A stretch of 64,000 nt of DNA from sequence record PZ402301.1; one strand, 5' to 3'. Origin of the DNA: a phage. Both the position numbers and the translations under genes were made by a program. Below the pieces are notes generated by a model. That model searched no databases and was not told the DNA's origin. It was given only the letters and a program-made list of their open reading frames with translations. Below are positions 3,756 through 33,070 of this stretch, piece after piece; positions within the stretch are counted from its first letter, which is position 1, and the number at the start of each line of letters is the position of its first letter.

Positions 3756-4064
3756 TTATTTACCAATAAATTGAAGTAAATGCTCAACTTTCATGCCATT
3801 AACGGAAATCAATTTGTCAATAGAAAAACCTCGCCATGCACCGAGCTCAACATCAAATACCGGAATCATATCAGTAGATTCTTTCCGAGTAGATTCAGTC
3901 AATTTACCGGTTTGCATAGTTGGCATAAAGTCAGCATCACGAGTGCCTTTCATAGTACGAATAGTACCATCAGACTTTTCAAAAACCACGTTTGAAATAC
4001 CCATGGACAATTTAGTTTTCAAAATTTCACGAATTGCTACTTTCTGTTCAGTTGTCAGTTTCAT
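3756..4064 (-). CDS. hypothetical protein, 102 aa (31.1 position)
   Basis: ORF track; between 31 and cd as T4 31.1/31.2. Confidence 0.6.
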   Translation of the reverse strand: MKLTTEQKVAIREILKTKLSMGISNVVFEKSDGTIRTMKGTRDADFMPTMQTGKLTESTRKESTDMIPVFDVELGAWRGFSIDKLISVNGMKVEHLLQFIGK

Positions 4065-21786: not shown

Positions 21787-21794
21787 GTATAAAT
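21787..21794 (+). promoter_or_regulatory. late promoter TATAAATA for gene 34
   Basis: Exact TATAAATA about 36 nt upstream of gene 34 ATG. Confidence 0.8.
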
Positions 21795-21829: not shown

Positions 21830-24800
21830 ATGGCCGAGATTAAAAGAAAGTTCAGAGCAGAAGACGGTCTGGACGCAGGTGGCGATAAAATAATCAACGT
21901 AGCTTTAGCTGATCGTACCGTAGGAACTGACGGTGTCAACGTTGATTACTTAATTCAAGAAAACACAGTTCAACAATACGATCCAACTCGTGGATATTTA
22001 AAAGATTTTGTAATCATTTATGATAACCGCTTTTGGGCTGCTATAAATGATATTCCAAAACCAGCAGGAGCTTTTAATAGCGTACGCTGGAGAGCATTAC
22101 GTACTGATGCTAATTGGACAACTGTTTCATCAGGACCTTATCAATTAAAGTCAGGCGAATCAATTTCAGTTGATACTGCAGCTGGTAATGACATTACATT
22201 TACTTTACCATCTTCCCCAATTGATGGAGATACTATCGTTCTCCAAGACATTGGAGGAAAACCTGGTGTTAACCAAGTTTTAATTACCGCTCCGGTGCAA
22301 AGCATTGTAAATTTTAGAGGTCAGCAAGTACGATCAGTACTAATGACTCATCCAAAATCGCAGATAGTTTTAATTTTTAGTAATCGTCTGTGGCAAATGT
22401 ATGTTGCTGATTATAGCAGAGAAGCTGCAGTTGTAACACCGGCAAGTCTTTATCAGGCGCAATCTAACGATTTTATTGTACGCAGATTTACTTCCGCTGC
22501 GCCGATTAATATTAAACTTCCGAGATTCGCTAATCATGGCGATATTATTAATTTCGTCGATTTAGATAAACTAAATCCACTTTATCATACAATTGTTACT
22601 ACATACGATGAAACTACTTCAATACAAGAAGATGGAACTCATTCCATTGAAGGTCGTACATCGATTGATGGTTTCTTGATGTATGATGATAATGAAAAAT
22701 TGTGGAGATTGTTTGACGGGGATAGTAAAGCACGTTTACGTATTATAACAACTAATTCTAGTATTCGTCCAAATGAAGAAGTTATGGTATTTGGAGCGAA
22801 TAACGGAACAACCCAAACAATTGAACTTCAGCTTCCAACTGATATTTCTATTGGTGATACTGTTAAAATTTCCATGAATTACATGAGAAAAGGCCAAACA
22901 GTTAAAATCAAAGCTGCTGGTGAAGATAAAATTGCTTCTTCAGTTCAATTGCTGCAATTCCCAAAACGTTCAGAGTATCCGCCTGAAACTAAATGGGTGA
23001 CTGTTCAAGAATTAGTTTTTAACGGCGAAACTAATTATGTTCCAGTTTTACAGCTTGCTTATATAGAAGATTCTGATGGAAAATACTGGGTTGTACAACA
23101 AAACGTTCCAACTGTAGAAAGAGTTGATTCTTTAAATAATTCTACTAGAGCAAGATTAGGCGTAATTGCTTTAGCTACACAAGCTCAAGCTAATGTCGAT
23201 TTAGAAAATTCTCCGCAAAAAGAATTAGCAATTACCCCAGAAACATTAGCTAACCGTACTGCTACAGAAACTCGTAGAGGTATCGCAAGAATAGCAACTA
23301 CTGCCCAAGTGAACCAGGATACTACATTCTCTTTTGCTGATGATATTATCATCACTCCTAAAAAGCTGAATGAAAGAACTGCTACAGAAACTCGCAGAGG
23401 TGTTGCTGAAATTGCGACGCAGCAAGAAACTAACGCAGGTACTGATGATACTACAATCATCACTCCTAAAAAGCTTCAAGCTCGTCAAGGTTCTGAATCA
23501 TTATCTGGTATTGTAACCTTTGTATCTACTGCAGGAGCTACTCCAGCTTCTAGTCGTGAATTAAATGGTACAAACGTTTATAATAAAAACACTAATAATT
23601 TAGTTGTTTCGCCTAAAGCTTTGGATCAGTATAAAGCTACTCCAACGCAACAAGGTGCAGTAATTTTAGCAGTTGAAAGTGAAGTAATTGCTGGACAAAG
23701 CCAAGAAGGATGGGCAAATGCGGTTGTAACGCCAGAAACGTTACATAAAAAGACATCGACTGATGCAAGAATTGGTTTAATTGAAATTGCTACGCAAAGT
23801 GAAGTTAATACAGGAACTGATTATACTCGTGCAGTCACTCCTAAAACTTTAAATGACCGTAAAGCAACTGAAAGTTTAAGTGGTATAGCTGAAATTGCTA
23901 CGCAAGTTGAATTCGACGCAGGCGTCGACGATACTCGTATCTCTACACCATTAAAAATTAAAACCAGATTTAATAGTACTGATCGTACTTCTGTTGTTGC
24001 TCTATCTGGATTAGTTGAATCAGGAACTCTCTGGGACCATTATACCCTTAATATTCTTGAAGCAAATGAGACACAACGTGGTACACTTCGTGTGGCTACG
24101 CAAGTTGAAGCTGCTACAGGAACATTAGATAATGTTTTAATAACTCCTAAAAAGCTTTTAGGTACTAAATCTACTGAAGCACAGGAAGGCGTTATTAAAG
24201 TTGCAACTCAGTCTGAAACTGTAGCTGGAACGTCAGCAAATACTGCTGTATCTCCAAAAAATTTAAAATGGATTGTGCAGAGTGAACCTACTTGGGCAGC
24301 TACTACTCTGGTAAGAGGTTTTGTTAAAACTTCATCTGGTTCAATTACATTCGTTGGTAATGATACGGTTGGTTCAACGCAGTCATTAGACTTGTACGAG
24401 AAAAATAGCTATGCGGTATCACCATATGAATTAAACCGTGTATTAGCAAATTATTTGCCGTTAAAAGCAAAAGCTGTAGATAGTAATTTACTGGATGGTC
24501 TAGATTCATCTCAGTTCATTCGTAGGGATATTGCGCAGACGGTTAATGGTTCACTAACCTTAACACAACAAACGAATCTGAGTGCCCCTCTTGTATCATC
24601 TAGTACTGCTACGTTCGGTGGATCAGTTTCAGCAAATAGTACACTAACTATTTCTAATACTGGAACAGCGACTCGTCTGATTTTTGAGAAAGGACCTCAA
24701 ACTGGAACGAACCCAGCGCAGACGATGACTGTCAAAGTGTGGGGGAATCAATTTAGCGGGGAATCAGATACAACACGTTCTACTGTATTTGAAGTTAGTG

Positions 24801-25699
24801 ATGAAACGTCTAGTCACTTTTATTCTCAGCGCAATAAAGCTGGTAATATAACATTTAATATCAATGGCACAGTAACACCGATAAATGTGAATGCTTCAGG
24901 AACATTGAATGCGAATGGCGTTGCAACATTCGGTAGTTCAGTTACTGCTAATGGCGAATTTATCAGTAAATCGTCGAATGCTTTTAGGGCAATAAACGGT
25001 GATTACGGATTCTTTATTCGTAATGATGGTGCTAACACCTATTTTATGCTTACTGCATCTGGTGATCAGACTGGTGGGTTTAATGGATTACGTCCATTAT
25101 CAATTAATAATCAATCTGGTCAGGTTACAATTGGTGAAAGCTTAATTATTGCCAAAGGTGCTACTATAACTTCAGGTGGTTTAACTGTCAACTCGAGAAT
25201 TCGTTCTCAGGGTACTAAAACCTCTGATTTATATACCCGTGCGCCAACATCTGATACTGTAGGATTCTGGTCAATCGATATTAATGATTCAGCCACTTAT
25301 AACCAGTTCCCGGGTTATTTTGAAATGGTTGAAAAAACTAATGAAGTGACTGGGCTTCCATACTTAGAACGTGGTGAAGAGGTTAAATCTCCTGGTACGC
25401 TGACTCAATTTGGTAACACACTCGATTCGCTTTACCAAGATTGGATTACTTATCCAACGACCCCAGAAGCGCGCACCACTCGCTGGACGCGTACATGGCA
25501 GAAAACCAAAAACTCTTGGTCAAGTTTTGTTCAGGTATTTGATGGGGGTAACCCTCCTCAGCCATCTGATATTGGTGCTTTACCATCTGATAATGCTATA
25601 ATGGGGAATCTTACTATTCGTGATTTCTTACGAATTGGTAATGTTCGTATTATTCCTGACCCAGTGAATAAAACGGTTAAATTTGAATGGGTTGAATAA
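21830..25699 (+). CDS. 34: gp34 long tail fibre proximal subunit
   Basis: 1289 aa, T4 gp34 length; internal repeated tail-fibre motifs; late promoter TATAAATA at 21787-21794. Confidence 0.95.
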   Translation: MAEIKRKFRAEDGLDAGGDKIINVALADRTVGTDGVNVDYLIQENTVQQYDPTRGYLKDFVIIYDNRFWAAINDIPKPAGAFNSVRWRALRTDANWTTVSSGPYQLKSGESISVDTAAGNDITFTLPSSPIDGDTIVLQDIGGKPGVNQVLITAPVQSIVNFRGQQVRSVLMTHPKSQIVLIFSNRLWQMYVADYSREAAVVTPASLYQAQSNDFIVRRFTSAAPINIKLPRFANHGDIINFVDLDKLNPLYHTIVTTYDETTSIQEDGTHSIEGRTSIDGFLMYDDNEKLWRLFDGDSKARLRIITTNSSIRPNEEVMVFGANNGTTQTIELQLPTDISIGDTVKISMNYMRKGQTVKIKAAGEDKIASSVQLLQFPKRSEYPPETKWVTVQELVFNGETNYVPVLQLAYIEDSDGKYWVVQQNVPTVERVDSLNNSTRARLGVIALATQAQANVDLENSPQKELAITPETLANRTATETRRGIARIATTAQVNQDTTFSFADDIIITPKKLNERTATETRRGVAEIATQQETNAGTDDTTIITPKKLQARQGSESLSGIVTFVSTAGATPASSRELNGTNVYNKNTNNLVVSPKALDQYKATPTQQGAVILAVESEVIAGQSQEGWANAVVTPETLHKKTSTDARIGLIEIATQSEVNTGTDYTRAVTPKTLNDRKATESLSGIAEIATQVEFDAGVDDTRISTPLKIKTRFNSTDRTSVVALSGLVESGTLWDHYTLNILEANETQRGTLRVATQVEAATGTLDNVLITPKKLLGTKSTEAQEGVIKVATQSETVAGTSANTAVSPKNLKWIVQSEPTWAATTLVRGFVKTSSGSITFVGNDTVGSTQSLDLYEKNSYAVSPYELNRVLANYLPLKAKAVDSNLLDGLDSSQFIRRDIAQTVNGSLTLTQQTNLSAPLVSSSTATFGGSVSANSTLTISNTGTATRLIFEKGPQTGTNPAQTMTVKVWGNQFSGESDTTRSTVFEVSDETSSHFYSQRNKAGNITFNINGTVTPINVNASGTLNANGVATFGSSVTANGEFISKSSNAFRAINGDYGFFIRNDGANTYFMLTASGDQTGGFNGLRPLSINNQSGQVTIGESLIIAKGATITSGGLTVNSRIRSQGTKTSDLYTRAPTSDTVGFWSIDINDSATYNQFPGYFEMVEKTNEVTGLPYLERGEEVKSPGTLTQFGNTLDSLYQDWITYPTTPEARTTRWTRTWQKTKNSWSSFVQVFDGGNPPQPSDIGALPSDNAIMGNLTIRDFLRIGNVRIIPDPVNKTVKFEWVE
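23170..24260 (+). repeat. imperfect tandem coding repeats within gene 34
   Basis: Repeated unit ...TATETRRG.A.IAT...ITPKKL... recurs several times (e.g. 23261 and 23381). Confidence 0.6.
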
Positions 25700-25707
25700 G
25701 AGGTATT

Positions 25708-26823
25708 ATGGAAAAATTTATGGCAGAGTTTGGACAAGGATATGTCCAAACGCCATTTTTATCGGAAAGCAATTCAGTAAGATATAAAATAAGCATAGCG
25801 GGTTCTTGCCCGCTTTCTACAGCAGGACCATATGTCAAATTTCAGGATAATCCTATCGGAAGCCAAGCATTTAATACAGGTCTTCATTTAAGAGTTTTTG
25901 ACCCTTCTACAGGAGCATTAGTTGATAGTAAGTCATATGCTTTTTCGACTTCAAATGATACTACATCAGCTGCTTTTGTTGGTTTCATGAACTCTTTGAC
26001 GAATAATAGACTTGTTGCTATATTAACTAGTGGAAAGGTTAATTTTCCTCCTGAGGTAGTATCTTGGCTAAGAGCCACAGGAACGTCTGCTTTTCCATCT
26101 GATTCTATATTGTCAAGATTTGACGTATCATATGCTGCTTTTTACACTTCTTCTAAAAGAGCTATTGCATTAGAACATGTTAAATTAAGCAATAGAAAAA
26201 GCACAGATGATTATCAAACTATTTTAGATGTTGTATTTGATAGTTTAGAAGACGTTGGAGCTACAGGATTTCCTAAAAGAACATATGAAAGCGTTGAGCA
26301 ATTTATGTCAGCGGTTGGTGGAACTAATAACGAAATTGCACGTTTACCAACTTCATCCGCGATAAGTAAATTATCTGATTATAATTTAATTCCTGGCGAT
26401 GTTCTTTATCTTAAAGCACAGTTATATGCTGATGCCGATTTACTTGCGCTTGGAACTACAAATATATCTATCCGTTTTTATGATGAATCGAATGGATATA
26501 TTTCTTCAACACATGCTGAGTTTACTGGACAAGCTGGGTCATGGGAATTAAAGGAAGATTATGTAGTTATTCCAGAAAACGCAGTAGGATTTACAATATA
26601 TGCACAAAGAACTGCTCAAGCTGGTCAAGGCGGCATGAGAAATTTAAGCTTTTCTGAAGTATCAAGAAATGGCGGAATTTCAAAACCTGCTGAATTTGGC
26701 GTCAATGGTATTCGAGTTAATTATGTCTGTGAATCTGCTTCACCTCCGGATATAATGGTACTTCCTACGCAAGCATCGTCTAAAACTGGTAAAGTGTTTG
26801 GGCAAGAATTTAGAGAAGTTTAA
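25708..26823 (+). CDS. 35: gp35 long tail fibre hinge (knee) protein
   Basis: 371 aa; position and size as T4 gp35. Confidence 0.9.
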   Translation: MEKFMAEFGQGYVQTPFLSESNSVRYKISIAGSCPLSTAGPYVKFQDNPIGSQAFNTGLHLRVFDPSTGALVDSKSYAFSTSNDTTSAAFVGFMNSLTNNRLVAILTSGKVNFPPEVVSWLRATGTSAFPSDSILSRFDVSYAAFYTSSKRAIALEHVKLSNRKSTDDYQTILDVVFDSLEDVGATGFPKRTYESVEQFMSAVGGTNNEIARLPTSSAISKLSDYNLIPGDVLYLKAQLYADADLLALGTTNISIRFYDESNGYISSTHAEFTGQAGSWELKEDYVVIPENAVGFTIYAQRTAQAGQGGMRNLSFSEVSRNGGISKPAEFGVNGIRVNYVCESASPPDIMVLPTQASSKTGKVFGQEFREV

Positions 26824-26827
26824 ATTG

Positions 26828-26855
26828 AGGGAGCCTTCGGGTTCCCTTTTTCTTT
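26828..26855 (+). terminator. rho-independent terminator after gene 35
   Basis: Hairpin GGGAGCCttcgGGTTCCC followed by TTTTTCTTT. Confidence 0.7.
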
Positions 26856-26862
26856 ATAAATA
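26855..26862 (+). promoter_or_regulatory. late promoter TATAAATA for gene 36-37-38
   Basis: Exact TATAAATA 24 nt upstream of gene 36 ATG, just after terminator hairpin. Confidence 0.8.
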
Positions 26863-26885
26863 CTATTAAAATAAAGGGGCATATA

Positions 26886-27542
26886 ATGGCTGATTTAAAA
26901 GTAGGTTCAACAACTGGAGGCTCTGTCATTTGGCATCAAGGAAATTTTCCATTGAATCCAGCCGGTGACGATGTACTCTATAAATCATTTAAAATATATT
27001 CAGAATATAATAAACCACAAGCTACTGATAACGATTTCGTTTCTAAAGCTAATGGTGGTACGTATTTAAATAAAGTAATTTTTAATAAAGGAATGACTGT
27101 TCCTGGTGCAGGGTCAGGTGACAATGGTATTTTTGCTGGTCCTGGTGATAATGCCACGTATGATACTACAAATATGGATATTGTTTCGTGGTATGGTATT
27201 GGTTTTAAATCATCACAAGGAACAGCAGGTAGAACTGTAGTAATTAACACGCGAAATGGAGATATTAGCTCAAAGGGTGTAATTGAAGCATCACAAATAC
27301 GCGCAGCTTCATTATCTCCAGTAAATAATTATGACCTTACACGGAAAGATTATGTTGATGGAGCAATAAATATTGTTACAGCAAACGCAAACTCTAGGGT
27401 ATTACGCTCTGGAGATACTATGACAGGAAATTTAACTGCGCCAAACCTTTTTTCACAGAATCCTGCATCTCAACCCTCACATGTTCCACGATTTGATCAA
27501 ATTGTTATTAAGGATTCTGTTCAAGATTTCGGCTATTATTAA
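26886..27542 (+). CDS. 36: gp36 long tail fibre distal connector
   Basis: 218 aa; preceded by terminator hairpin and TATAAATA late promoter. Confidence 0.9.
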   Translation: MADLKVGSTTGGSVIWHQGNFPLNPAGDDVLYKSFKIYSEYNKPQATDNDFVSKANGGTYLNKVIFNKGMTVPGAGSGDNGIFAGPGDNATYDTTNMDIVSWYGIGFKSSQGTAGRTVVINTRNGDISSKGVIEASQIRAASLSPVNNYDLTRKDYVDGAINIVTANANSRVLRSGDTMTGNLTAPNLFSQNPASQPSHVPRFDQIVIKDSVQDFGYY

Positions 27543-27550
27543 GAGGACTT

Positions 27551-30500
27551 ATGGCTACTTTAAAACAAATACAATTTAAAAGAAGCAAAACTGCAGGAGC
27601 ACGTCCTGCCGCTTCAGTATTAGCCGAAGGTGAATTGGCTATAAACTTAAAAGACCGCGTACTTTTTACTAAAGATGACCAAGGAAATATCATTGATCTT
27701 GGTTTTGCTAAAGGCGGTAGCATTGACGGGAATGTTATTCATATAGGAAACTATAATCAAACTGGTGATTATACTTTAAATGGTACCTTCACTCAAACCG
27801 GTGATTTCAATTTAACTGGTATTGCTCGAGTAACTCGCGATATTATTGCCGCCGGGCAGATTATGACTGAGGGTGGAGAACTTATTACAAAAAGTTCAGG
27901 TACATCGCATGTTCGTTTTTTCGATGGCAATAGCCGCGAACGTGGAATCATTTATGCCCCGGCTAATGATGGATTAACTACGCAAGTAGTTAATATCCGC
28001 GTTCAAGACTACGCCGCTGGTGATGAAAGCACCTATGCATTTTCAGGCAGTGGCCTATTTACTTCACCTGAAGTATCAGCATGGAAATCTATTTCATCTC
28101 CACAAATTCTGACCGATAAAGTTATTACAAATGGGAAGAAGACAGGCGATTATGATATCTATTCATTAGCAAATAACACTCCGTTGGCAGAAAGCGAAAC
28201 GGCTATTAACCACCTCCGTGTTATGCGAAATGCCGTAGGATCTGGTATATTCCATGAAGTTAAAGATAACGACGGGATAACCTGGTACGCCGGTGACGGG
28301 TTAGATGCCTATCTTTGGTCGTTTACCTGGTCCGGTGGATTGAAAGCAGGCCATTCTATTTCTATAGGTCTTCCGGGCGGCTCTAAAGGATATTCTGAAT
28401 TAGGGACTGCTTCAATTGCTCTTGGTGATAATGATACCGGATTTAAATGGCATCAGGACGGATATTTTCATACAGTAAACAACGGAACAAGAACTTTCAT
28501 TTACGGTCCTGCGGAAACACAAAGCCTTAGAAAAATGGTTATGGGTTATTCTCCGGATGGGATTCTTATGACAACGCCACCGACAGAAAACTATGCATTA
28601 GCCACTGTTGTTACTTATCATGATAATAACGCGTATGGCGACGGTCAGACTCTTTTAGGTTATTATCAAGGCGGTAATTATCATCACTATTTCCGTGGTA
28701 AAGGTACTACAAACATTAATACTCACGGCGGTTTGTTAGTTACTCCCGGTAATATTGACGTTATTGGTGGTTCTGTTAATATTGATGGTAGTAATAATGC
28801 TTCTACGCTGATGTTTAGAGGTAACACAACTGGTAGCAGTTCAGTTGATAATATGACAATTTCTGTATGGGGTAATACGTTTACTAATCCTAGTGTAGGT
28901 AATCGTAAAAATGTCATGGAAATTTCTGACGCAACTAGCTGGATGAGTTATATTCAAAGACTTACTACCGGTGAAGTAGAAATGAACGTCAATGGTTCAT
29001 TTGAATCATCCGGTGTTACTGCTGGAAATAGAGGAGTTCACACAACAGGCGAAATTTCATCTGGAGCAGTGAATGCGCTTCGCATTTGGAATGCAGATTA
29101 TGGAGCCATTTTTAGACGTTCAGAAGGCAGTCTTCATATTATTCCAACTGCTTACGGTGAAGGTAAACATGGCGATATCGGTCCACTTCGCCCGTTTAGT
29201 ATGGCTTTAGATACTGGTAAAGTTACTATTCCAGATTTACAATCAAGTTACAATACGTTCGCAGCAAACGGCTATATTAAATTTACTGGTCACGGTGCAG
29301 GCGCTGGTGGTTATGATATTCAGTATGTTCAAGCAGCTCCTATTTTCCAGGAAATTGATGATGATGCTATAAGCAAATATTATCCTATTGTTAAACAGAA
29401 GTTTTTAAACAGTAAAGCGGTTTGGTCTTTAGGTACTGAAATTAATTCGGGTACATTTGTTTTACACCATATCAAAGAAGATGGATCACAAGGCCATACG
29501 TCTCGTTTTAATCAAGACGGTACTGTTAACTTCCCGGATAACGTTCAGGTCGGTGGTGGTGAAGCTACTATTGCTCGAAATGGTAATATCTGGTCTGATA
29601 TTTGGAAACCGTTTACTTCTGCCGGTGATACTACAAATATTCGCGATGCTATTGCGACTCGTGTTTCGAAAGAAGGCGACACGATGACCGGTAAATTGAC
29701 TTTATCGGCAGGCAATGATGCTCTTGTTTTAACTGCAGGCGTGGGTGCTTCATCGCACATCCGTAGTGATGTAGGTGGTACAGGTAACTGGTATATAGGC
29801 AAAGGCGGCGGCGATAATGGTCTAGGTTTTTACAGTTACATTACACAAGGCGGTGTATACATAACAAATAACGGCGAAATATCGCTTTCTCCTCAAGGTC
29901 AAGGAACATTTAATTTTAATAGAGACCGCCTTCATATAAACGGTACACAGTGGACTGCGCACCAAGCTGGCGATTGGGCAAACCAATGGCGACAAGAAGC
30001 GCCGATATTTGTAGATTTTGGCTACGTCGGCAATGACTGCTATTATCCTATTATTAAAGGAAAATCTGTTATTACGAATGAAGGATACGTATCTGGTGTT
30101 GATTTCGGTATGCGCCGTATCACTAACCAATGGGCTCAGGCTATTATCCGTGTTGGTAACCAGGAAAATGCTAGCGATCCGCAAGCTATCTTCGAATTCC
30201 ACCATAATGGAAACATGTACGTTCCTGACATGGTTAAAGCTGGAGTAAGAATATCAGCTGGTGGAGGTGACCCTGCATGGACAGGCGCATGTGTTGTTAT
30301 TGGTGATAATGACACTGGGTTAGTTCATGGCGGTGACGGTCGTATTAACATGGTTGCAAATGGAATGCATATTGCTTCATGGTCGTCCGCTTACCATCTC
30401 CATGAAGGTCTTTGGGATACCACTGGTGCTTTGTGGACTGAACAAGGAAGAGCTATTATTTCTTTTGGTCATTTAGTCCAACAAAGCGATGCCTATTCCA

Positions 30501-30862
30501 CATTTGTCCGCGATGTTTATGTCCGTTCTGATATTCGTGTTAAAAAAGACCTTGTTAAATTTGAAAATGCTTCTGAGAAGCTTTCTAAAATTAACGGTTA
30601 CACTTATATGCAGAAGCGAGGCCTAGATGAAGAAGGAAATCAGAAATGGGAACCTAACGCCGGTTTGATAGCTCAAGAAGTTCAAGCTATTTTACCTGAA
30701 TTAGTTGAAGGTGACCCTGATGGTGAAGCTTTACTTCGTTTGAACTATAACGGTGTAATTGGTTTAAATACAGCTGCAATCAATGAGCATACTGCAGAAA
30801 TTGCAGAACTTAAATCAGAAATCGAAGAACTTAAAGCATTAGTTAAATCATTGTTAAAATAA
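27551..30862 (+). CDS. 37: gp37 long tail fibre distal subunit with C-terminal intramolecular-chaperone-like domain
   Basis: 1103 aa; conserved N-terminus [45 protein letters not shown]; C-terminal SDIRVKK motif plus coiled-coil tail. Confidence 0.9.
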
Positions 30863-30863
30863 T

Positions 30864-30896
30864 AAGAGGGGCTTCGGCCCCTTGGGGGTTTATATG
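30864..30896 (+). promoter_or_regulatory. gene 38 translation initiation region with hairpin between Shine-Dalgarno and AUG
   Basis: AGAGG followed by GGGGCTTCGGCCCC hairpin then ATG 30894; hairpin would bring SD and start codon together. Confidence 0.6.
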
Positions 30897-31670
30897 GCAG
30901 TAACAGGACCGTGGGTAGGATCGTCTGCAGTAGTTAATACAGGACAAAATTGGATGGGTGGCGCGGCCCAACGATTAAGAATGGGCATTCCGTTTTGGAT
31001 GAGTAATATGATAGGTCGATCTGTTGAAATAATTCACACGCTTGGAGCAGACCATAACTTCAATGGTCAATGGTTCCGAGATAGATGTTTTGAGGCAGGT
31101 AGTGCACCTATAGTGTTTAATATCACCGGAGATTTAGTATCATATTCTAAAGATGTTCCTTTATTCTTCATGTACGGAGATACACCAAATGAATATGTTC
31201 AACTGAATATACACGGTGTAACGATGTATGGCCGTGGCGGGAATGGCGGTAGCAATAGTCCTGGCTCAGCTGGAGGTCATTGTATTCAAAATGATATTGG
31301 TGGGAGACTAAGAATTAATAATGGCGGAGCTATTGCTGGCGGCGGTGGCGGCGGCGGTGGCGGATATTATTCTCCTTTTTCACAAATGAGATTGACATTT
31401 GGCGGTGGTGGCGGTCGTCCGTTTGGCGCGCCGGGCGGATCTATTGATATGCAATCAGGAGCAACTGCCGGTACTATTTCTGCGCCTGGCGCAGGGTCTG
31501 TGAACGGTATCTATAGCGGCGGGTCTGGTGGTGAAGTTGGCTCCGCAGGAGGTAGATGTAATATTCGTGGTCAAGGATATGAATACGATGGCGGAGCTGC
31601 TGGTTATGCCGTCATAGGGTCTACGCCAACGTGGCAAAACGTTGGAGCAATATATGGTCCAAGAGTATAA
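30894..31670 (+). CDS. 38: gp38 receptor-recognising adhesin (T2-type, glycine-rich)
   Basis: 258 aa from ATG 30894; poly-Gly tracts ([21 protein letters not shown]) as in T2-type gp38 adhesins; far longer than T4 gp38 (183 aa). Confidence 0.85.
31338..31364 (+). repeat. (GGN)9 glycine-codon tract inside gene 38
   Basis: ggcggcggtggcggcggcggtggcgga encoding poly-Gly. Confidence 0.8.
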
Positions 31671-31700
31671 TTTGAATAAATATCCTTAAAAGGAGGGTCT

Positions 31701-32357
31701 ATGGCAGCACCTAGAATATCATTTTCGCCCTCTGATATTCTGTTGGGTGTTCTAGATCGCTTGTTCAAAGATAACGCTACCGGGAAAGTTCTTGCTTCCC
31801 GGGTAGCTGTCGTAATTCTTTTGTTTATAATGGCGATTGTTTGGTATAGGGGAGATAGTTTCTTTGAGTACTATAAGCAATCAAAGTATGAAACATACAG
31901 TGAAATTATTGAAAAGGAAAGAAATGCACGCTTTGAATCTGTCGCCCTGGAACAACTCCAGATAGTTCATATATCATCTGAGGCAGACTTTAGTGCGGTA
32001 TATTCTTTCCGCCCTAAAAACTTAAACTATTTTGTTGATATTATAGCATATGAAGGAAAATTACCTTCAACAATAAGCGAAAAATCACTTGGAGGATATC
32101 CTGTTGATAAAACTATGGATGAATATGCAGTTCATTTAAATGGACGTCATTATTATTCCGACTCAAAATTTGCTTTTTTACCAACTAAAAAGCCTACTCC
32201 CGAAATAAATTACATGTACAGTTGTCCATATTTCAATTTGGATAATATCTATGCTGGAACAATAACCATGTACTGGTATAGAAATGATCATATAAGTAAT
32301 GACCGCCTTGAATCAATATGTTCTCAGGCGGCCAGAATATTAGGAAGGGCTAAATAA
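31701..32357 (+). CDS. t: holin T
   Basis: 218 aa; single N-proximal transmembrane segment and large periplasmic domain; AAGGAGG RBS. Confidence 0.9.
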   Translation: MAAPRISFSPSDILLGVLDRLFKDNATGKVLASRVAVVILLFIMAIVWYRGDSFFEYYKQSKYETYSEIIEKERNARFESVALEQLQIVHISSEADFSAVYSFRPKNLNYFVDIIAYEGKLPSTISEKSLGGYPVDKTMDEYAVHLNGRHYYSDSKFAFLPTKKPTPEINYMYSCPYFNLDNIYAGTITMYWYRNDHISNDRLESICSQAARILGRAK

Positions 32358-32630
32358 TTATTTGTTTGTATACATCTCTAGATATCGATATACACCCTCA
32401 AAACCCTCGTTGAATTCGTCGATGAGGGTTTTCTTATCTTCTTGGGTTAATTCAGAAACAATTTTACGGAATGAATTCTGATTTAACTTTCTACCTTCAT
32501 GCGTTACTCCAATCTCATTCAGAAATGCAATAAAATTAGCACGATTCTCAACAATATCTTCTCTGGAAAATTTAATCAAAATAGACGCAACAGTAATAAT
32601 TTCACGAACTGTATCAATGTTTTTATTCAT
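32358..32630 (-). CDS. asiA: AsiA anti-sigma-70 factor
   Basis: 90 aa; sequence MNKNIDTVREIITVASILIKFSREDIVENRANFIAFLNEIG matches T4 AsiA. Confidence 0.9.
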   Translation of the reverse strand: MNKNIDTVREIITVASILIKFSREDIVENRANFIAFLNEIGVTHEGRKLNQNSFRKIVSELTQEDKKTLIDEFNEGFEGVYRYLEMYTNK

Positions 32631-32791
32631 TAACTATACCACTCAATTAGTTGACTTTATTATAATATCATCAGACACTTGATTTGTAAACTGGTCTGTG
32701 TTATTTTCTTCAAAAATTTTTTCTACGAATTCCTTGAACGACTCGCGTTCCTGAGCTACATTATGCTCGATTACCTTTTCAAGATTATGAC

Positions 32792-33070
32792 TCATTCAAA
32801 ATAATCTTCAATTTCGTAATCATGGACATAAATCATTATAGTTTTTAATACATCATCAATACTTTTTCCTGGAGCTGGAATTACGTAAAAATATCCTGCT
32901 TTTGAGAGGTCTTTATAAGTTCCAACCAAGAAATCATTATTCTCGAGATGTAGTTCTTCAACTAATTCATTAACAATTGAGTGGTATAAATTTGGTAGAA
33001 GCTTATATAGCTTTTCTAGAATATCAATTTTGATTGTATATTGAACCACAGATTGAGAATCAATAATCAT
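32792..33070 (-). CDS. arn: Arn anti-restriction (McrBC inhibitor) protein
   Basis: 92 aa; acidic DNA-mimic-like composition; position asiA-arn-motA. Confidence 0.8.
   Translation of the reverse strand: MIIDSQSVVQYTIKIDILEKLYKLLPNLYHSIVNELVEELHLENNDFLVGTYKDLSKAGYFYVIPAPGKSIDDVLKTIMIYVHDYEIEDYFE

Follow-up and report, generated by a model that had tools for sequence, protein, structure and literature searches.

A gp38-adhesin tail-fibre tip module of the T2/T6/S16 kind in a Tequatrovirus genome, with Tsx as its predicted receptor

Which protein forms the receptor-binding end of the long tail fibre in this phage, and which host receptor would it contact? In T4 the receptor is bound by the tip of gp37 itself and gp38 is an unrelated chaperone. 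We examined a window of 64,000 nucleotides of phage DNA (record PZ402301.1), for which a sequence-only reading had proposed a host-range module distinct from that of T4. The features that this reading had named (open reading frames, motif, tail, glycine runs and N-terminus) were all found in place. The analysis established the gene structure and the family membership, identified conserved residues for catalysis and docking, and revealed the T6-like loops and the mosaic breakpoints present in nature. We conclude, with a probability of about 0.92, that the module encodes the tip of a Tequatrovirus distal half-fibre of the T2/T6/S16 ('gp38-adhesin') kind, in which gp37 would be processed, capped by gp38 and directed to Tsx.

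The genome that carries the module is a Tequatrovirus, with genes 37 and 38 lying between gene 36 and the t holin gene. ORF calls and Pfam and PHROG family matches agreed on the gene order g34-g35-g36-g37-g38-t. Gene 38 stands directly 3' of gene 37 and 5' of the t holin gene, and the same order is found in RB27, FL23, T6, T2 and S16. The late promoter (Table 1) likely marks the start of a g36-g37-g38 late transcript, judging from T4 biology. A search for sigma-70-like promoters at 26700-32500 revealed no enrichment (23 found versus 18.4 ± 4.7 expected), and no known RNA families were found on either strand of 25000-33000. The intercistronic hairpin folded at -17.7 kcal/mol in a 56-nt context (z = -2.1) and is kept in T4, T2, RB27, FL23, Ac3 and NBEco003. 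The mechanically called ORF for gp38 starts at TTG 30882, at the 3' edge of this hairpin, and encodes 262 aa. This start was rejected because of its position at the hairpin edge and because Gp38_N and all relatives begin at ATG 30894; the Pfam Gp38_N model aligns from residue 1 of the 258-aa product. Small antisense ORFs within g37 and g38 were taken as chance.

Table 1. Features of the distal tail-fibre module, in window positions
Feature	Position	Strand	Basis or remarks
T4-type late promoter TATAAATA	26855..26862	+	5' of g36; exact consensus match
Gene 37, long tail fibre distal subunit	27551..30862	+	Uninterrupted ORF, 1103 aa, 118.8-kDa precursor
gp37 residues 408-561, domain common with the gp34 C-terminal trimerisation region	28772..29233	+	Pfam, PDB and own gp34
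gp37 residues 911-992, distal tip ending DVYVR	30281..30526	+	Aligns to S16 gp37 tip, 6F45_A
gp37 residues 993-1103, predicted intramolecular chaperone/autoprotease (Peptidase_S74)	30527..30859	+	111 aa, 12.3 kDa
gp37 C-terminal helix, residues 1083-1103	30797..30859	+	Three regular heptads; a = I, I, V; d = L, L, L
Intercistronic C(UUCG)G tetraloop hairpin, g37/g38	30867..30882	+	Fold and conservation
Gene 38, tail-fibre adhesin	30894..31670	+	ORF, 258 aa, 26.1 kDa
gp38 residues 1-40, attachment domain	30894..31013	+	Gp38_N match; tryptophans W7, W20, W35
gp38 residues 113-242, specificity domain	31230..31619	+	Glycine-rich motifs (GRMs) alternating with hypervariable segments (HVSs)
gp38 G9 tract, residues 149-157	31338..31364	+	GGCGGCGGTGGC tandem array; mosaic breakpoint
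gp38 G5 tract, residues 170-174, then conserved RPFG	31401..31415	+	Invariant in 6/6 aligned adhesins

The gp37 protein matched PHROG 1699 ('long tail fiber protein distal subunit') end to end and is 92% identical to gp37 of RB27. Its N-terminus is the conserved T-even one that had been claimed, with 77% identity to T6 over residues 1-62 and 68% to S16 over residues 1-84. With the gp37 proteins of T2 and T4 the alignment covers the N-terminal ~640-680 residues, at ~34-35% identity (~640 residues and 35% for T4, at the same locus). Further along, residues 408-561 scored 32.7 bits against Pfam Gp34_trimer (cut-off 27), matched gp34 in PDB 4UXE/5NXF (E about 4e-12) and are 33% identical to residues 938-1101 of the gp34 of the same phage. 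This likeness is one of protein only, and no DNA-level repeats between g34 and g37 able to drive recombination were found.

An SDxRxK pattern near the C-terminus of gp37 had been likened to the intramolecular-chaperone autoprotease of other phage fibres, and it proved to open a real Peptidase_S74 domain. Pfam PF13884 matched residues 993-1052 at 48.5 bits (cut-off 22) over model positions 1-57 of 58, and the 51 residues that follow this match form the extreme C-terminus, the last part being a heptad helix. The motif VRSDIRVKK begins at residue 991, with Ser993 encoded at 30527-30529 and Lys998 at 30542-30544. The tip plus chaperone aligned to S16 gp37 in PDB 6F45_A with an E of 1.7e-43 and the chaperone part alone with 1.5e-34; the latter also weakly matched the MYRF autoprocessing domain 7DC3. 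The pattern SD.R[VIL]K is kept in RB27, FL23, T6, T2 and S16 and is absent from T4. Around the predicted cleavage site, DVYVR^SD aligns with DLNVS^SD of S16 (DLNVS^SDRRIKK) and DVYIR^SD of fPS (PMC7917993), and the i, i+5 spacing of Ser and Lys equals that reported for Ser1264/Lys1269 of T5 pb1 (PMC4690869). The tail, earlier called heptad-like, consists of regular heptads, two of the three encoded by a 21-nt tandem duplication at 30795-30835. Three copies of this helix would be expected to associate as a coiled coil and so nucleate folding; the triple coiled coil at the C-terminus of T5 pb1 is homologous (PMC4690869). Once cleaved, residues 911-992 would carry the predicted docking surface for gp38.

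The gp38 protein has the 258 residues from ATG 30894 and the several poly-Gly tracts (G9 and G5 among them) that were described earlier. It matched Pfam PF05268 GP38 over residues 45-258 (240.5 bits, E 2.4e-71) and PF21721 Gp38_N over residues 1-40 (76.6 bits, E 1.5e-21), the cut-off being 25 for both. With family scores this far over threshold, chance does not explain the matches. Matches were also obtained to PHROG 2056 ('tail fiber protein; host specificity'), to the PP01 adhesin in PDB 9V85 (E 4.5e-81) and to the S16 adhesin in PDB 6F45_D (E 6.7e-52). The three tryptophans of the attachment domain are invariant in a six-way alignment of this phage, RB27, FL23, T6, T2 and S16, and gp38 tryptophans act as prongs in gp37 pockets (PMC6851490). 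Glycine accounts for 24% of the protein, which has eleven GG pairs and G runs at residues 115-119, 149-157, 170-174 and 209-220. The G9 tract is the counterpart of the long PGII helix in S16 gp38, and the end of the protein fits the conserved PxWxNVGxIxG (P245-W247-N249-V250-G251). The full-length matches to 6F45_D and to the receptor-binding domain of 9V85 suggest a polyglycine-II sandwich fold.

Two other accounts of these proteins were weighed. We give next to no credence to the idea that gp38 is a T4-type assembly chaperone found outside the virion, with gp37 itself binding the receptor. The gene name and the place 3' of g37, as in T4, are all that speaks for it, and it is refuted at the sequence level: the alignment to the T4-type chaperone that the sequence-only reading had named as a point against itself was not seen, T4 gp38 giving only a 12-residue match in blastp (E 1.8). 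The strong matches to adhesin families and solved adhesin structures argue against it as well. So does gp37: its similarity to T4 gp37 ends at about residue 640, so that a C-terminal receptor-binding extension of the T4 type is missing, and it has a chaperone domain of its own instead. It is also very improbable that the S74-like domain is no more than a degenerate remnant, with gp37 remaining full length and gp38 attached elsewhere or not at all. The fin of the P22 tailspike is indeed an uncleaved auto-chaperone (PMC4690869), and cleavage of the present gp37 is predicted from homology. However, Ser993 and Lys998 are intact and are kept across six related gp37s from three genera-level lineages, the S74 score is far above the Pfam cut-off, and conservation extends to the docking tryptophans of gp38. 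Residues ~1001-1103 are 100% conserved with RB27 whereas central gp37 segments fall to 56-68%, which indicates purifying selection on the domain. Among homologues, autocatalytic chaperone release has been reported for S16 gp37 (PMC7917993), and T2 and T6 gp37 undergo C-terminal proteolytic cleavage followed by capping with gp38 (PMC3157838).

For the adhesin module we propose the following scheme, with cleavage, a 3:1 stoichiometry, fold and receptor carried over from homologues. The gp37 precursor would be synthesised at 118.8 kDa, and its last 111 residues would act as an intramolecular chaperone: a coiled coil of the three C-terminal helices would template trimerisation of the beta-helical tip. 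When the tip had folded correctly, Ser993, activated by Lys998, would cut the Arg992-Ser993 bond. The cut, which we infer for this phage from its homologues, would free the 12.3-kDa chaperone and leave a mature gp37 of 106.5 kDa ending in ...DVYVR. One gp38 would cap the newly exposed end of the gp37 trimer, where three equivalent pockets would receive W7, W20 and W35 from the N-terminal helical bundle of gp38. The glycine-rich motifs would be polyglycine-II helices packed as a sandwich, and the hypervariable loops at the far end of gp38 would touch the host outer-membrane receptor, most likely Tsx. Point mutations in the loops could shift the host range, as could recombination within the conserved DNA that encodes the glycine-rich motifs. 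No sequence feature contrary to the adhesin-module reading was found in the analysis of the module.

Several known systems share this layout in part. Compared by sequence, S16, PP01 and Ac3 stand nearer than T2 to this phage in the gp37 tip and chaperone and in the gp38 attachment domain. S16, whose gp37-gp38 tip complex is PDB 6F45 (Dunne et al. 2018, as described in PMC6851490), has the same two-gene arrangement, cleavage motif and coiled-coil tail. Its gp37 tip and chaperone align end to end with those described here (48% identity over 192 aa), and its gp38 is laid out in the same three domains, with the three tryptophans present and a long poly-Gly helix in the corresponding position. The S16 gp37 is shorter (749 aa), and the tip in this phage has a 12-residue insertion. 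In PP01 (PDB 9V85; PMC12892980) and NBEco003 the N-terminal ~112 residues of gp38 and GRM2 are nearly identical to those found here (94-100% DNA identity for NBEco003), and gp37 is 84-100% identical in most windows of 50 residues, with a low of 76% immediately ahead of the cleavage site. Every HVS differs, however, and the PP01 receptor is OmpC. Ac3 (AF060870; Tetart, Desplats and Krisch 1998) has an identical architecture, with a gp37 of 1103 aa and a gp38 of 258 aa, and 86.6% DNA identity over 96% of the module, but its HVS2, HVS3 and HVS4 blocks differ and several gp37 segments are divergent. T5 pb1 and the K1F endosialidase are similar only distantly in sequence, although the domain has the same C-terminal place on a trimeric fibre, ends in a triple coiled coil and carries the Ser...Lys pair at i, i+5 (PMC4690869). 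After cleavage those fibres contact the receptor themselves; here, by contrast, the end left by the cut is the predicted docking site for a separate adhesin.

Within the specificity domain (residues 113-242), gp38 is 98.5% identical to RB27, 95.4% to FL23 and 93.1% to T6, as against 49% to T2 and 48.5% to S16, whose HVS loops are unlike and whose target is Salmonella OmpC. The assignment of gp38 to the T2/K3/Ox2 type thus held as to its being an adhesin and not a T4 chaperone (GP38/Gp38_N, 9V85 and 6F45_D matches), and is refined as to the specificity domain, which in sequence is T6-like and not T2-, K3- or Ox2-like, the comparators being T2, T6, S16, RB27, FL23, Ac3, NBEco003 and T4, with K3 and Ox2 sequences outside the comparison. 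RB27 and FL23 have both the receptor-binding part and the fibre in common with this phage. For the attachment domain, identity to T6 gp38 is no higher than 59%, and T6 gp37 (994 aa) differs in its tip and its chaperone (36% identity over residues 988-1089); with T6, therefore, the receptor-binding part is common and the carrier fibre is not. T6, RB27 and FL23 are Tsx-dependent (PMC3157838, PMC12032242), and Tsx binders have essentially one HVS set (PMC3157838). Since the gp38 loops are nearly those of these three phages, the nucleoside channel Tsx is predicted as the most likely receptor.

Receptor calls from HVS similarity can fail, and small HVS changes are known to shift or broaden specificity: PST differs from T6 in three HVS residues and has gained recognition of OmpA and of Yersinia (PMC3157838), and the single HVS3 change Q206L moved RB68 from OmpF to OmpW (10.64898/2026.04.02.716166). 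Between the present gp38 and that of RB27 the differences are S211G and Y229S; compared with T6 there are ~10 in residues 113-242, for example at N204, S208, S211 and Y229. The architecture could accordingly be as described and the primary receptor not be Tsx, or not Tsx alone (OmpA, for example, or an added specificity), through a few loop substitutions. We regard this as unlikely. The residues changed in PST are unaltered here, the QM of SQMRL in HVS2 being kept, and the specificity domain is 93-98.5% identical to three adhesins whose Tsx dependence is experimental. Moreover, gp38 phylogeny reliably predicted the receptor in two independent collections (PMC12032242; 10.64898/2026.04.02.716166). 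That the substitutions relative to RB27 and T6 widen or shift recognition to a Tsx variant or to a second porin unused by characterised T6-like phages is a distinctly long shot; if true, this gp38 would be a natural host-range variant worth testing.

The module is real but ordinary, and the same or nearly the same alleles are already deposited. Its gp38 is 100% identical to that of GEP001, BMB16 and P8, and the module DNA is 99.8% identical to phages P8 and BMB16. Altogether 649 phage records match the module DNA and 880 encode a gp38 relative, which rules out a distinct, unusual module, although the module does differ from that of T4 as first proposed, since T4 gp37 is without an S74 domain and T4 gp38 is unrelated. 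The matches to solved structures and the identical deposited proteins settle the identity of the module. Cleavage of gp37, capping by gp38, the polyglycine fold and motif-mediated recombination are all in the literature already, and the module raises no new question. Its value lies in annotation, that is, in which proteins set host range and which receptor comes first (Tsx). The phages with the identical gp38 (GEP001, P8 and BMB16) were isolated on O157 and other E. coli.

GRM1, the G9 tract and GRM4 are where the mosaics of T6, NBEco003 and Ac3 break. Inside the G9 tract or directly behind it, DNA identity to NBEco003 and Ac3 drops, and five megablast matches stop at query position 3810, which is 31360 of the window. 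The suggestion that the glycine tracts are recombination points fits these natural mosaics. The 1998 work of Tetart, Desplats and Krisch on Ac3 is the original example of conserved-motif recombination swapping adhesin specificity. Recombination at the glycine-rich motifs was shown experimentally long since (Tetart 1998, as cited in PMC3157838; 10.64898/2026.04.02.716166), and a gp38 swap resolving from HVS2 onwards changed the receptor (10.64898/2026.04.02.716166). For engineered swaps, the gp38 specificity domain could be exchanged from GRM1 or from the G9 tract onwards, with the N-terminal ~112 residues of gp38, matched to this gp37 tip, being retained.

The window is a portion of a Tequatrovirus (T4-like) genome, and past the t holin gene that follows the tail-fibre genes lie asiA, arn and motA in divergent orientation, the same arrangement as in RB27, T6, T2, T4 and S16. 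ORF calling and translation returned exactly the coordinates, lengths and peptides that the sequence-only reading had quoted for g37 and g38.

Tail-fibre genes and adjoining holin gene in the window
Gene	Position	Strand	Length	Remark
g34	21830-25699	+	1289 aa	late tail-fibre gene
g35	25708-26823	+		late tail-fibre gene
g36	26886-27542	+		late tail-fibre gene
g37	27551-30862	+	1103 aa	
g38	30894-31670	+	258 aa	
t holin	31701-32357	+		

The gp38 protein was assigned to PHROG 2056 (tail fiber protein; host specificity) and scored 240.5 bits against Pfam GP38 and 76.6 bits against Gp38_N. It matched the receptor-binding domain of PP01 gp38 (PDB 9V85; PMC12892980) at E 4.5e-81 and S16 gp38 (6F45_D) over its full length at E 6.7e-52. 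Similarity to T4 gp38 was also sought and amounted to 12 residues (E 1.8), so gp38 does not align to the T4-type chaperone, and the alignment result that would have refuted the earlier reading did not occur. Glycine makes up 24% of the protein, with nine consecutive glycines at residues 149-157 (G9) and five at 170-174 (G5). In a six-way alignment the N-terminal W7, W20 and W35 were invariant; in S16 gp38 these three tryptophans fit three equivalent pockets of the gp37 trimer (PMC6851490). Glycine-rich motifs (GRMs) are conserved and the intervening segments variable; in S16 the motifs are polyglycine-II helices stacked as a sandwich of three layers, with the binding face proposed to consist of the variable loops (PMC6851490).

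The earlier assignment of gp38 to the T2/K3/Ox2 type holds at the family level but fails for the specificity domain, which is T6-like. Over gp38 residues 113-242, identity was 98.5% to RB27, 95.4% to FL23 and 93.1% to T6, vs 49% to T2 and 48.5% to S16. Because RB27 and other T6-like adhesins use Tsx (PMC3157838), and a Tsx requirement was shown for FL23 and FL44 (PMC12032242), Tsx is predicted to be the primary receptor, with a probability of about 0.8. This prediction is tempered by the small number of changes in hypervariable segments (HVSs) that have altered specificity elsewhere: three in PST added OmpA and Yersinia specificity (PMC3157838), and a single HVS3 change in RB68 shifted it from OmpF to OmpW (10.64898/2026.04.02.716166). 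The sole differences from RB27 in this domain are S211 and Y229, and the HVS2 residues altered in PST are retained.

By sequence, the attachment domain of gp38 and the tip and chaperone of gp37 are closer to those of S16, PP01 and Ac3 than to those of T2 or T6. For the attachment domain, identity is 59% to T6 and 48% to T2; for the C-terminal region of gp37 it is 48% to S16, 36% to T6 and 28% to T2. This pairing is in keeping with a reported requirement for a match between the N-terminal ~113 residues of gp38 and the gp37 beneath them (PMC12892980). The adhesin itself is T6-like and probably binds Tsx, and it is carried on an S16/PP01/Ac3-like gp37 tip.

End to end, gp37 matched PHROG 1699 (long tail fiber protein distal subunit). 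Residues 993-1052 matched Pfam Peptidase_S74 ('chaperone of endosialidase'; 48.5 bits, cut-off 22), the match starting exactly at Ser993 within VRSDIRVKK (from residue 991; Ser993, Lys998); the stretch from Ser993 to the C-terminus is 111 residues long. The solved S16 tip and chaperone construct (PDB 6F45_A) aligned with residues 911-1103 (E 1.7e-43); the last 119 residues alone matched it at E 1.5e-34, and gave weak matches to the MYRF autoprocessing domain and another phage fibre. S16 gp37 autocleaves within DLNVS^SDRRIKK, whereby its C-terminal chaperone is set free and the docking surface for gp38 becomes accessible (PMC7917993). DVYVR^SDIRVKK of the window aligns at that position, and the motif is shared by T2 (NVYIR^SDIRLK) and T6 (DVYIR^SDSRLK) and absent from T4 gp37. 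T5 pb1 shows the same i, i+5 spacing as Ser993/Lys998, with Lys1269 activating the scissile Ser1264; cleavage there needs a correctly folded trimer, and the domain ends in a triple coiled coil of C-terminal helices (PMC4690869). The final 21 residues of gp37 form three regular heptads (a = I, I, V; d = L, L, L), and a 21-nt tandem duplication (30795-30835; 2 copies, 90% match) encodes AEIAELK and SEIEELK of this helix. By analogy with these fibres, gp37 would be cleaved into a 106.5-kDa mature form (residues 1-992) and a freed 12.3-kDa domain (computed masses).

Codon-aligned g38 DNA, with the window as reference, revealed clear mosaics. T6 is 31-67% identical over most of the attachment domain, then 93-100% from the onset of GRM1. 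The converse is seen in NBEco003 (PP01-like allele), at 94-100% up to GRM1, 53-69% in HVS1, 86% in GRM2 and 30-47% beyond the G9 tract. For Ac3, identity is 100% as far as the G9 tract, 33% in HVS2, again 100% in GRM4 and 56% in HVS4. Query base 3810 (window 31360), within the G9 codons, is the end point of five megablast hits; the tract is coded by a 2.2-copy tandem array of GGCGGCGGTGGC (31338-31363), and relatives carry 8 or 9 glycines at this position. The array is a plausible substrate for slippage and for homologous exchange; the earlier reading had proposed the glycine tracts as candidate recombination points. The pattern agrees with Tetart et al. 1998 (cited in PMC3157838) and Trojet et al. 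2011, in which such recombinants were obtained, and with a 2026 swap in which exchanging gp38 solely from HVS2 onwards switched the receptor (10.64898/2026.04.02.716166). Conserved motifs would, however, give islands of identity even without recombination, so the alignments are consistent with the published mechanism rather than independent proof of it.

Two internal gp37 segments, residues ~700-800 (29600-30000) and ~300-350 (28450-28600), are 48-68% identical to RB27/FL23 yet 94-100% to NBEco003, and mark separate mosaic patches in the fibre shaft. Residues 408-560 (28772-29233) share 33% identity with gp34 residues 938-1101 (24641-25132; Gp34_trimer domain) with no DNA-level similarity between the two regions, which makes this an old duplication of a shaft module.

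Module DNA was matched by 649 phage records, and 880 encode a gp38 relative. GEP001, BMB16 and P8 have an identical gp38 (100%), and P8 and BMB16 match the 4.1-kb module at 99.8% identity; gp37 differs from that of P8 at three positions, one a one-codon indel. Near-identity to vB_EcoM_P8 (99-100%) spans ~25500-~33500 (g35-g36-g37-g38-t-asiA), with flanks at 93-98% and some 500-nt bins farther upstream at 73-87%; the best matches of the first 25 kb are other phages (about 96%). The distal half-fibre thus moves as a unit, in ordinary T-even mosaicism. Ac3, deposited in 1998, has the same 1103 + 258 aa architecture. The adhesin module is confirmed and its earlier interpretation supported, but it is an already known feature and adds little beyond annotation.

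The g37 stop and the g38 start are separated by a tetraloop hairpin of the C(UUCG)G kind, AGGGGCTTCGGCCCCT (30867-30882), which belongs to the classic class of very stable T4 intercistronic hairpins (Tuerk et al. 1988). It is kept in T4, T2, RB27, FL23, Ac3 and NBEco003, and variants of the loop occur in T6 and S16; mRNA stability and control of translation are candidate roles. The TTG at 30882, offered as the g38 start by mechanical ORF calling, was rejected since it lies at the hairpin foot and Pfam Gp38_N and all relatives begin at ATG 30894. The g38 Shine-Dalgarno (30884-30888) is GGGGG in the window and P8, vs GGAGG in RB27, FL23, Ac3 and NBEco003, which may alter gp38 translation efficiency. 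A UUCG hairpin also occurs 3' of g35 (GAGGGAGCCTTCGGGTTCCCTT with a T-run after it; 26827-26862 region), and directly after it, upstream of g36, stands a perfect late promoter, TATAAATA, at 26855; a further copy of the promoter is at 21788, upstream of g34. Residues 58-125 of the hinge protein gp35 matched Pfam ILEI (PF15711, interleukin-like EMT inducer/FAM3 fold) at 32.2 bits (cut-off 27).
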